Virus record (IMG/VR): IMGVR_UViG_3300027608_000028
Location: 6,306-70,305 of that record
Direction: 5' to 3' (one strand)
Length of the DNA stretch: 64,000 nt
Source of the DNA: a virus
The position numbers were made by a program, and so were the translations under genes. This document shows, one piece after another, positions 42,179-43,941 of the stretch (positions are counted from its first letter, which is position 1; each line of letters begins with the position of its first letter). The notes under the pieces are model-generated. The model was not told the DNA's origin, ran no database searches, and saw only the letters and a program-made list of their open reading frames with translations.

Positions 42179-43069
42179 TTATCTTGCAAGACATTGTCTA
42201 TAGTTACGTTTTTCCGGGTCTAAATGTAAAGGGTTACAGTCTCTCCAACTAGGTTCCATATTTTCTGCTTGGTCTTTATCTTGGGCCCACGCAGTTTCCC
42301 ATACTTGTTCATTGACTGCCCAATTTTCTTCTGGGTAATTAAAATCTCTGTATTTAAAAATATGACTAATTGTTTCTGTGTCTGACTTTGGTTCATTAAT
42401 CATTACAAAAACTGCACCAGGTTGCCATTCAAACATTGTTCCTGGATATTGTGCTAGCCATACTGCATTGTACGCTAATCCTTTACCTTTAATAAATTTA
42501 GTAAAATCTGTTTCTTCAGTCATTGACCCGACGACATATTGTGCGCTTCCACCATCCCACCGCTTCCATGTTATTTCTTCTACATTAGGTACATTAATTT
42601 TAGCATATACTCCGGGGTGAACTAACGGTATATGATCTATGTCTAAAAATAAATCCATAATTGGAACATAATTAGATTTAATTACGTCTTGTCGATATTC
42701 TACTAATTTATAGTCGCCGACGATATTTCTATCCAATGGTACAGGATCTGTGAATAAGAACCCACTCCATTCAAATACAGGCTCTGTTGTTAAAGGATGA
42801 TTATTTTTGCAAGGCATGGATCCTGTACTGTGTCCCACAGTGCCGCTACCTTTTGGTGTTCCATTCTTATCCCAACTCCAGCCATGGTATGGACAAACTG
42901 CATGTAGGTTTGTTCCTGCACCTTTTCGTATACGACTACCTTGATGCGTACAAATATTGCTTTGTAATGTAAAGTTACCTTCAACATTTAGCAATGTTTT
43001 TTTAGACTGAAATTGTTCTAGAACTTTCCAACTTCCCTGAGGGATATCATTGATGTGTGCTAAAAACAT
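42179..43069 (-). CDS. Rieske non-heme iron oxygenase alpha-subunit-like protein
   Basis: 'CTHQG...CPYHGW'; 'DIDHIPLVH'; 'QD'. Confidence 0.9.
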   Translation of the reverse strand: MFLAHINDIPQGSWKVLEQFQSKKTLLNVEGNFTLQSNICTHQGSRIRKGAGTNLHAVCPYHGWSWDKNGTPKGSGTVGHSTGSMPCKNNHPLTTEPVFEWSGFLFTDPVPLDRNIVGDYKLVEYRQDVIKSNYVPIMDLFLDIDHIPLVHPGVYAKINVPNVEEITWKRWDGGSAQYVVGSMTEETDFTKFIKGKGLAYNAVWLAQYPGTMFEWQPGAVFVMINEPKSDTETISHIFKYRDFNYPEENWAVNEQVWETAWAQDKDQAENMEPSWRDCNPLHLDPEKRNYRQCLAR

Positions 43070-43088
43070 ATAGTATATTTATATATAA

Positions 43089-43110
43089 GAAACCCGCCGA
43101 AGCGGGTTTC
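43089..43110 (-). terminator. Terminator closing the tmRNA gene
   Basis: GAAACCCGC-TTCG-GCGGGTTTC. Confidence 0.85.
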
Positions 43111-43472
43111 TGGTGGTTTCTGTTACGAGGCATTTCCTGCCCTAAGTGGCTGTTAGGCCGCTAATGCGAACTGTGAGTCGTTTGCGGTTACTTTTGTTTA
43201 GTTTTTACGACTATCGCTGTCGTGCTGTCCACTCTGTTACTTGTTGCCCTGTCGAATCTAGGTCAGGCCCATCAAAAGAAAATTACACATCTTTTTTGTG
43301 ATGCGGTTTGATATTGAGACCGTATAGATAACTAACACCGCACACTGACAACACTATCATCACTGCGACAAATACTATTACCTCGATCATTTAATTTCCT
43401 TTTGGTGGACCTGGGGGGATTCGCACCCCCGTCCAGAACACTTTTCTCTTTGCTTCATACAGCAATAACTCT
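43111..43472 (-). ncRNA. ssrA: Circularly permuted (two-piece) tmRNA; tag ANDSQFALAA*
   Basis: The acceptor piece ending ...GGGGGTGCGAATCCCCC-CAGGTCC-ACCA (43403) comes first. The coding piece starts GGGCCTGACCTAGATTCGAC (43270). G3.U70 pair present; tag at 43153-43185. Outer ends are approximate. Confidence 0.92.
43283..43390 (-). CDS. 35-aa single-TM peptide inside the tmRNA intervening segment
   Basis: AAGGA SD; MIEVIVFVAVMIVLSVCGVSYLYGLNIKPHHKKDV. Confidence 0.65.
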   Translation of the reverse strand: MIEVIVFVAVMIVLSVCGVSYLYGLNIKPHHKKDV

Positions 43473-43486
43473 TACTACATATCATA

Positions 43487-43582
43487 CGGAAGAAGGTAGG
43501 GGATTCGGACCCCTGGGAGGTGTTGTTAAGAACCTTCGCTAGTTTCGGAAACTAGTACTTTAAGCCACTCAGTCAACCTTCC
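43487..43582 (-). tRNA. Atypical long-variable-arm (Ser-like) tRNA with CCG anticodon; possibly a pseudo-tRNA
   Basis: GGAAGGT...GAGTGGCTTAAAG, arm CTAGT-TTCCGAA-ACTAG, long variable arm, T arm AGGGG-TCCGAAT-CCCCT, 3' ACCTTCTTCCG. Confidence 0.7.
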
Positions 43583-43586
43583 GTCG

Positions 43587-43751
43587 TTACTCTCTAATTA
43601 CCTTCTTTACTTCAAAACTTGAAGTGTCGCTTTTATTAGGATCATGTTCATTGATCCAGTCTCTTGCTACTTGAAATGGATCGGCTGTTCCTTTAATTAC
43701 TTCTGCAACTTTTTCTTTGTTTACATATATTTCAAAAACTACTGTTGACAT
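43587..43751 (-). CDS. 54-aa hypothetical protein
   Basis: MSTVVFEIYVNKEKVAEV...KKVIRE; AAGGA SD. Confidence 0.6.
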   Translation of the reverse strand: MSTVVFEIYVNKEKVAEVIKGTADPFQVARDWINEHDPNKSDTSSFEVKKVIRE

Positions 43752-43941
43752 TTGATTTTCCTTCAATTATAAATTTTACAATGCCGGATTGTTTTTCAAA
43801 AACAATACGATTATCATGTCCTACTCTAACACTAAACACATCTCCGTTAGAAACACCTATTTGTTCTGGTGTAAGTTCCGGGTCCATTGCTATACTTCCG
43901 CTAGGGAGTAAGTTAAAATTGTAGTCGACAAACATAGTCAT
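43732..43941 (-). CDS. Small AbrB-like hypothetical protein
   Basis: 'EQIGVSNGDVFSV...RIVFEK'. Confidence 0.6.
   Translation of the reverse strand: MTMFVDYNFNLLPSGSIAMDPELTPEQIGVSNGDVFSVRVGHDNRIVFEKQSGIVKFIIEGKSNVNSSF

Follow-up and report, generated by a model that had tools for sequence, protein, structure and literature searches.

We analysed a 64,000-nucleotide (nt) stretch of DNA from a lake phage (positions 6,306 to 70,305 of IMG/VR record IMGVR_UViG_3300027608_000028; referred to below as the window, whose own numbering is used throughout), and found on its minus strand a gene for transfer-messenger RNA (tmRNA) whose two pieces are separated by an intervening sequence (IVS) that contains an open reading frame (ORF). 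We consider it likely that the phage carries here a full tmRNA gene of the circularly permuted (two-piece) kind, and that the IVS of this gene serves as a slot for gene cassettes. ARAGORN called a permuted tmRNA (tmRNA*) at 43062-43495 on the minus strand, with the tag ANDSQFALAA. The region also scored well above the cut-offs of two Rfam models: 121.4 bits versus 47 for RF04321 (tmRNA_permuted; model positions 1-213, the full model) and 133.2 bits versus 84 for RF01850 (beta_tmRNA; model positions 1-331). The order of the parts is permuted, with the CCA end (43405-43403) first, then the G1 that starts the coding piece (43270), and then the tag frame (43185-43153). The IVS is thus the 132 nt between the CCA, which ends at 43403, and the GGGCCTG of the coding piece (43402-43271, minus strand). 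An earlier note on this DNA, made from the sequence alone, had arrived at the same order, spacer length and tag, and ARAGORN and the permuted Rfam models agree with it. Pairing of GGGCCUG with CAGGUCC gives a G3-U pair in the acceptor stem, indicating alanine identity; the T arm aligns to the Rfam model, and the tag frame has a hydrophobic ..LAA tail with the stop codon directly after it.

An exact 32-nt motif of the T arm and acceptor was found in at least 118 viral contigs, and all counts of loci and IVSs given here are among these matches listed (numbered with the prefix L). A coding piece lay downstream in 106 loci, the window and its duplicate (L001) included, which gave 78 unique IVSs of 25-491 nt; 13 loci with no coding piece within reach were left out. 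Among 185,579 species genomes the same exact motif occurred in 2 contigs, both of them short contigs in metagenome-assembled genomes. ARAGORN called a permuted tmRNA in 14 of the 20 relatives scanned, with tags of the same type in all 14. It missed the complete genes whose IVSs measure 284, 382 and 491 nt, all three of those scanned, as well as three that were truncated or uncalled. RF04321 matched over its full length in nine of ten long-IVS loci, the exception being L052. No tRNA was found within any IVS of the 20 loci scanned.

The IVSs of this collection have a hypervariable interior that is often an ORF on the sense strand, under purifying selection and with a Shine-Dalgarno (SD) sequence in the 5′ arm of the helix that closes the IVS. 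Indeed, among the 44 unique IVSs of at least 84 nt, 27 had a sense ORF that started within the first 30 nt and filled at least 80% of the IVS, compared with 1 of 44 on the reverse strand and with a mean of 1.58 (maximum 6) in shuffled sequences. An SD-like word lay in the first 10 nt of 25 of these 27 coding IVSs, versus 7 of the 51 others. Eight more IVSs were coding by other criteria (L029, L118 and L055, each with two ORFs; L034 and L097; and three of the L008 type, described below), bringing the total to 35 coding and 9 non-coding. The stop codons of single-ORF cargos cluster at two places: 13 use the UGA of a UGAU linker at the end of the IVS, and in 10, as in the window, the stop is at the top of the 3′ arm, 12-13 nt from the end of the IVS. 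Ratios of non-synonymous to synonymous substitution rates (dN/dS) were 0.06-0.16 for cargo families, with 0.081, 0.064, 0.091 and 0.137 for four cargo pairs. Three cargos scored above the Pfam cut-off (GNAT, CxxCxxCC and Oxidored-like). The cargos include soluble proteins of unrelated families, of up to 151 residues, and many of the other short cargos are small hydrophobic peptides. Searched with tblastn, the cargo proteins of L059, L052 and L006 had no match in 50,697 phage records. A homing element was considered as the nature of the insert and rejected, as no endonuclease match was found among the cargos scanned.

Comparison of the loci shows that whole IVSs, arms included, have been exchanged between otherwise near-identical tmRNA genes. 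The tmRNA pieces of the window, of L099/L113 and of L038 are near-identical (94-100% in the coding piece), and their IVSs have been replaced exactly between the CCA and the linker; the flanking genes are unrelated. A relative of the L059 cargo sits in the IVS of the L129 tmRNA, which has a different T arm. The same family also occurs as free-standing genes (L132-L134, L137, L139, L140) or within longer ORFs (L135, L136, L138). In two further loci (L130 and L131) a homologue of the L059 cargo follows what looks to be a decayed acceptor piece, in which the 5′ part is kept, the T arm is broken and no coding piece lies downstream; here the tmRNA appears to have been lost while the cargo survived. 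This pattern of exchange suggests that the cargos are phage genes of an ordinary kind, which enter and leave the slot together with the arms. The reading of the spacer as an exchangeable cargo slot is, thus, well supported by these comparisons. The earlier note had asked for homologous spacers to be compared for ORF conservation or cargo swapping; the comparison gave a low dN/dS for cargos other than that of the window, and IVS swaps between near-identical tmRNAs. It had also suggested, as an alternative, a neutral cargo slot. The slot itself is strongly supported by the hypervariable inserts and their exchange, a support that does not extend to its neutrality.

The tmRNA gene itself seems to behave as a mobile module. 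At the position taken in the window by an upstream tRNA, four relatives (L099, L113, L024 and L039) have a sigma-70-like promoter (TTGACA-like, N17, TATAAT). Compared with the window, L099, L113, L038, L024 and L039 carry the entire tmRNA gene, promoter and terminal hairpin included, between unrelated genes. A prophage attachment-site (att) remnant was rejected as an explanation, as the gene is complete, with a promoter or a tRNA leader and a terminal hairpin.

The features of the locus, all on the minus strand, are as follows.

43403-43464, minus strand: tmRNA acceptor piece (RF04321 alignment, model 1 to about 63, and sequence), comprising the 5′ strand that pairs with the coding piece, the T arm, the acceptor-stem 3′ strand, the discriminator A and the encoded CCA (end 43403)

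43271-43402, minus strand: IVS of 132 nt, whose removal is needed to free the CCA end and G1

43392-43402, minus strand: 5′ arm of the closing helix, 11 nt, with the SD-like AAGGA (43401-43397)

43283-43390, minus strand: 35-codon ORF and its TAA, encoding a single hydrophobic helix with a basic tail

43275-43285, minus strand: 3′ arm of the closing helix, 11 nt, overlapping the TAA stop

43271-43274, minus strand: unpaired linker TGAT directly 5′ of G1, the expected RNase P site

43153-43270, minus strand: tmRNA coding piece from G1 to the tag stop, with the tag frame at 43185-43153 (ARAGORN and Rfam)

43086-43152, minus strand: 3′ part of the coding piece with a GC-rich terminator-like hairpin at about 43088-43111 (RF01850 alignment to the model end, 331)

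43488-43582, minus strand: 95-nt long-arm tRNA directly upstream (ARAGORN: tRNA-Arg, anticodon CCG)

The inverted repeat that, in the earlier note, closed the spacer and buried both the SD and the stop codon is present (43403-43392 with 43285-43274; 12 pairs, one of them G-U). Minimum-energy folding predicts it both for the precursor (z -4.4, with none of 100 shuffles as stable) and for the isolated spacer (z -3.8, none of 200), and in both folds the predicted helix of 11-13 bp encloses the SD and the stop codon. To compare the 78 unique IVSs, spacer base i was set against base L-3-i (L being the spacer length), which keeps the last 4 nt ahead of G1 out of the pairing. With this register, 94% of cells at positions 1-9 were paired, compared with 40-66% in the seven other registers. 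Many pair types occur at helix positions 4, 5, 7, 9 and 11 (at position 5, for example, GC in 25 IVSs, CG in 19, AT in 12, GT in 10 and TA in 9). Pairing dropped to 37 of 74 at position 12, and the helix, which begins directly behind the CCA, is therefore about 11 bp long. The linker is TGAT in 64 of the 78 unique IVSs, and its final T is present in 69. Bacterial RNase P prefers a U at position -1, which fits a linker ending in T.

The helix and UGAU are kept by covariation across IVS lengths of 25-491 nt, coding or not, and conservation of the helix is no weaker around IVSs of 25-119 nt that do not code. A distant phage in culture, Xanthomonas phage Rb1, provides a further case: L124/L126 corresponds to PQ569993.1 16300-16605, a complete permuted tmRNA (RF04321, 103.4 bits) at a place with no annotated feature, and its 105-nt IVS is GC-rich, non-coding, and closed by the same type of helix followed by UGAU. 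Since the helix is kept in non-coding spacers, down to 25 nt, and in Rb1, it belongs to the precursor of the tmRNA rather than having arisen for the sake of the peptide; the SD just has to lie within its 5′ arm. Judged by its sequence, the window IVS is a member of what looks to be a widespread stem-closed cassette slot in the tmRNAs of aquatic phages.

We then considered the ORF of the window itself. As the earlier note had observed, the spacer is nearly filled by an SD-led frame of 35 codons, which runs from an ATG at 43390 to a TAA at 43285-43283, encodes the peptide MIEVIVFVAVMIVLSVCGVSYLYGLNIKPHHKKDV, and is preceded by AAGGA (43401-43397) 6 nt 5′ of the ATG. The ATG is at spacer position 13, and the stop ends 12 nt short of the end of the IVS, a place shared by 7 other unique IVSs. 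An ORF of at least 35 codons from ATG to stop arose in 92 of 5000 dinucleotide shuffles of the window spacer; taken alone the ORF is thus only mildly unlikely and weak evidence, and it is the comparative data that carry weight. This figure, together with the lack of a known family for the peptide, is what could be said for a chance open frame in an A+T-rich spacer. Such a frame would have to have been kept in three variants and two cassette layouts, with a suitable SD each time, and in a family in which 27 of 44 IVSs carry sense ORFs and only 1 of 44 an antisense one, so that we regard chance as a very improbable explanation.

The peptide cluster contains three intact variants of 35 residues (including P0003 and P0004), which differ conservatively from each other (I/L, I/V, E/K, N/K and G/C). 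All copies with readable DNA (the window; L055 and L122; L123) lie inside tmRNA IVSs. The cassettes of L055, L122 and L123 have two ORFs each, and the peptide is encoded by the second, which has its own AAGGAG SD. The window lacks the first ORF of the L123/L055 cassette, and the junction falls at a short repeat around both start codons; the window cargo would most likely have derived from a two-ORF cassette of the L123/L055 type by loss of the first ORF. The window cargo is probably a real gene for a small single-pass membrane peptide. A search of a protein atlas with the peptide returned matches only below a score of 0.9, with no lead to a family or fold.

Several points weigh against a working gene cassette in this IVS. 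The tmRNAs closest to that of the window among the matches listed (L099 and L038, 96% and 94% in the coding piece) have short non-coding IVSs, so that the cargo must be dispensable for tmRNA function. The peptide variants differ by five non-synonymous changes and one synonymous change, which gives no signal of purifying selection, the numbers being too small to test. No relatives of the peptide were found beyond its own cluster among 1.84 billion representatives (one further row, of 934 residues, had no aligned stretch), and it matched no family in PHROGs, Pfam (E up to 1) or PADLOC. In both predicted folds the SD lies inside a stable helix, which would depress initiation. Finally, translation of the IVS ORFs, processing of the RNA, the nucleases taking part and the identity of the messenger (the precursor or the excised IVS) are inferred from sequence only.

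Most of these points, and the loss of the first ORF from the window, could also be expected if the IVS takes any insert and the window ORF is a decaying or neutral passenger, a remnant of the two-ORF cassette with no useful translation or selection. The frame, however, is intact and exactly 35 codons long in all three variants, with conservative changes. After the loss of the first ORF the ATG is at spacer position 13, which is typical of the family, with AAGGA 6 nt upstream. The excess of ORFs at the level of the family is strong, and other cargos are under selection. We therefore think a mere passenger unlikely, and prefer the reading of the IVS as a slot for functional cassettes. The earlier note had held that its proposal would be refuted if homologous spacers lacked open frames. 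The outcome is divided: the spacers of L099 and L038 are indeed short and non-coding, whereas 35 of the 44 unique spacers of at least 84 nt are coding.

Some of the cargos bear on the question of which RNA is the messenger. Four unique cargos (L004/L081 and L009/L023) have no stop codon before G1. The Oxidored-like cargo (PF09791, 45.5 bits; L008, L043/L068 and L046; IVS of 115 nt) has neither its start nor its stop within the IVS: the acceptor piece holds its sole in-frame ATG, on the 5′ side, and the coding piece holds its stop. The pairwise differences between these cargos fall mostly at codon position 3 (13 of 14, 11 of 15 and 14 of 19). The Oxidored-like protein would, thus, be read through the tRNA-like domain of the precursor. 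The four cargos without a stop and the three without start and stop are together seven unique cargos that would be completely readable only from the unprocessed precursor. By extension from these seven, the unprocessed precursor may be the messenger in general.

The earlier note had proposed that the inverted repeat couples synthesis of the peptide to maturation of the tmRNA. In its strict form, this means that the helix is a dedicated switch and that a toxin-, holin- or regulator-like peptide reports or enforces processing. The proposal draws on the predicted burial of the SD and stop codon and on a cargo that, like many other short cargos, is a small hydrophobic peptide. It also draws on the 13 coding IVSs whose stop is the UGA 1 nt before G1, where a terminating ribosome would cover the RNase P site, and on the seven cargos readable only from the precursor. 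Fold-back inhibition is known from type I toxin mRNAs such as hok, in which the SD of a small hydrophobic peptide ORF is closed by 5′-3′ RNA pairing. The window ORF and its closed SD are alike in the predicted folds, but the helix here is also found without any ORF in many relatives. Since it is kept equally around non-coding IVSs (25-119 nt) and in Rb1, the helix did not evolve for the peptide. The cargos, moreover, include unrelated soluble proteins of up to 151 residues. No antisense RNA, such as type I toxin systems have, was found nearby, no search aimed at one having been made. No lysis genes, among which a holin would be expected beside an endolysin, were seen nearby either: neither flanking ORF (42179-43069 and 43587-43766) had a PHROG match, and no endolysin was seen adjoining the tmRNA locus among these neighbouring ORFs, the wider neighbourhood not being annotated. 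A dedicated switch is, thus, distinctly improbable, less so than chance alone. The helix lends no specific support to the coupling that had been proposed, while some coupling of another kind is possible in view of the seven precursor-only cargos.

How a cassette slot of this kind might work can be outlined as follows. The helix would join the two halves of the acceptor stem, and would shield tmRNA folding, RNase P cleavage and 3′-end processing from whatever the cargo is. Ribosomes could engage the SD during transcription, at a time when the 3′ arm has yet to be made; formation of the helix would then shut the SD, end translation and commit the RNA to processing. In a fuller version, the pre-tmRNA would have two functions in succession, acting as a messenger and then in ribosome rescue, and the slot would provide promoter-free, self-limiting early expression of small membrane peptides and accessory proteins. 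As long as ribosomes are on the cargo, neither the closing helix nor the acceptor stem could form; once the helix did form, the RNA would change from one use to the other. A ribosome terminating at the UGA 1 nt before G1 (13 cargos) would cover the RNase P site, so that synthesis of the cargo and maturation of the tmRNA might be mutually exclusive on each transcript. For cargos of the L004, L009 and L008 types, processing would destroy the message or yield a non-stop mRNA, which the tmRNA made from that same transcript may take as a substrate. We offer this two-stage scheme tentatively; as a whole it is doubtful, albeit less so than either the passenger or the switch.

Permuted tmRNA genes are textbook non-coding genes, and their IVS is treated as discarded. 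Bacterial permuted tmRNA genes (RF04321; RF01850, the betaproteobacterial model) are like the window gene in the order acceptor piece, CCA, IVS, coding piece, in a tRNA-like domain with a G-U third pair in the acceptor stem and in the ANDxxFALAA-type tag. They differ in having, by the Rfam consensus, an IVS of just a few tens of bases, whereas here the gene is phage-borne and the IVS long and protein-coding. The parts available to us of PMC11915505 mention one tRNA-Ala gene and one repetitive element as IVS contents, and mention no protein genes there. Also comparable are the two-piece tmRNAs of aquatic phages (OM43 phage Melnitz and Pelagibacter phage HTVC008M), which are likewise complete permuted ssrA genes beside tRNA genes in large aquatic phages, in the portion of the source we could consult (PMC9004378). 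That portion counts 53 two-piece forms among 133 unique phage tmRNAs, and mentions a glutamine riboswitch but no ORF in the IVS (PMC9004378). The tmRNA gene of HTVC008M is 210 nt long for a model of 213 positions, so that its IVS must be short, unlike that of the window.

Two other systems place a protein gene within a removed part of a stable RNA. In Coxiella burnetii, an IVS of 23S rRNA carries an ORF for S23p, which is alike in being an ORF in a stem-closed, excised segment of a stable-RNA precursor; it differs in having rRNA as host, one conserved ORF family and no exchangeable slot, and the excerpts at hand report results suggesting that the S23p protein is not made (PMC4990558). The window peptide does not belong to S23p (the Pfam scan gave 0 families at E up to 1), and the analogy is one of layout only. 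Group I introns in the T loop of tmRNA, some with LAGLIDADG homing-endonuclease genes, also place a protein gene within a removed part of tmRNA. Those introns self-splice and carry a mobility enzyme (36 of 883), as far as the accessible text goes (PMC11915505), whereas here the IVS is intrinsic and presumably cut by tRNA-processing enzymes. We found no paper that describes protein genes in a tmRNA IVS, including PMC9004378, PMC11915505 and PMC4131195 in the parts available; the supplementary tables of PMC9004378 and PMC11915505 might list such cases.

Should the IVS prove to be an exchangeable expression slot in wide use, the precursor of a stable RNA would double as a messenger. Small phage proteins would then have been missed in large numbers, as annotation masks the region as RNA and ARAGORN failed on the three complete genes with IVSs of 284-491 nt. 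The slot would also offer a natural system in which to study how translation competes with the folding or processing of the same transcript, also for cargos that are left without a stop after processing. The conserved helix and UGAU are a defined, mutable element on which maturation of two-piece tmRNAs can be tested.

The window belongs to a virus record of 70,305 bases with a CheckV completeness of 22%. Its DNA had no blastn match of at least 80% coverage among the 50,697 phage records. The genes around the tmRNA locus are all on the minus strand, and a ribonucleotide reductase is among the PHROG matches, as are phage families whose function is unknown. On the minus strand, the junction of the tRNA-Arg (CCG) and the tmRNA has no promoter-like site, and the two are therefore probably one transcript. 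The tRNA (43488-43582) has no separate Rfam entry, owing to its overlap with the beta_tmRNA match of the same clan.

For RNA, the assembled contigs of four freshwater metatranscriptome runs (X3, X13, X17 and X18) were compared with positions 43000-43650. Both tmRNA pieces were covered in these lake metatranscriptomes, with a summed word depth of up to 4667 (X18) compared with about 5 in the flanks. Positions 43286-43395 of the window IVS were uncovered in the same contigs, which is uninformative on excision or expression, as the depth over the conserved pieces sums all relatives. Where a contig bridges the IVS with a different sequence (87 letters in X13), it comes from a relative that has another IVS.

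The large cargos (IVS starts of L015, L059, L077, L114 and L129) share an 11-nt insert between the SD arm and the ATG that contains ATAAATA, a word that resembles what we take to be the T4 late-promoter consensus. At the N-terminus the same five cargos have a common motif, M-(R/Q)-I-(N/K)-E-(I/L), and the free-standing homologues L132 and L140 have it too; a similar N-terminal motif elsewhere in the window had been pointed out in an earlier sequence-only note. Just past the terminal hairpin of the tmRNA, at 43076-43083 (minus strand) and 6 nt ahead of the ATG (43069) of a 296-residue ORF, lies TATAAATA, presumably a late-promoter word of the T4 type. This word is not enriched in the window (6 matches versus 8.7 expected), and all six matches are on the gene strand. 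A 32-codon frame (43387-43485, minus strand) runs from the leader through the acceptor piece to a TGA that overlaps the ATG of the peptide (ATGA); it may be due to chance, and is the same frame as that of the L008-type cargo. The contigs of L006 and L095, which have tmRNAs with coding IVSs, also carry very large tRNA arrays, with 26 tRNAs called by ARAGORN in 14 kb of L006.

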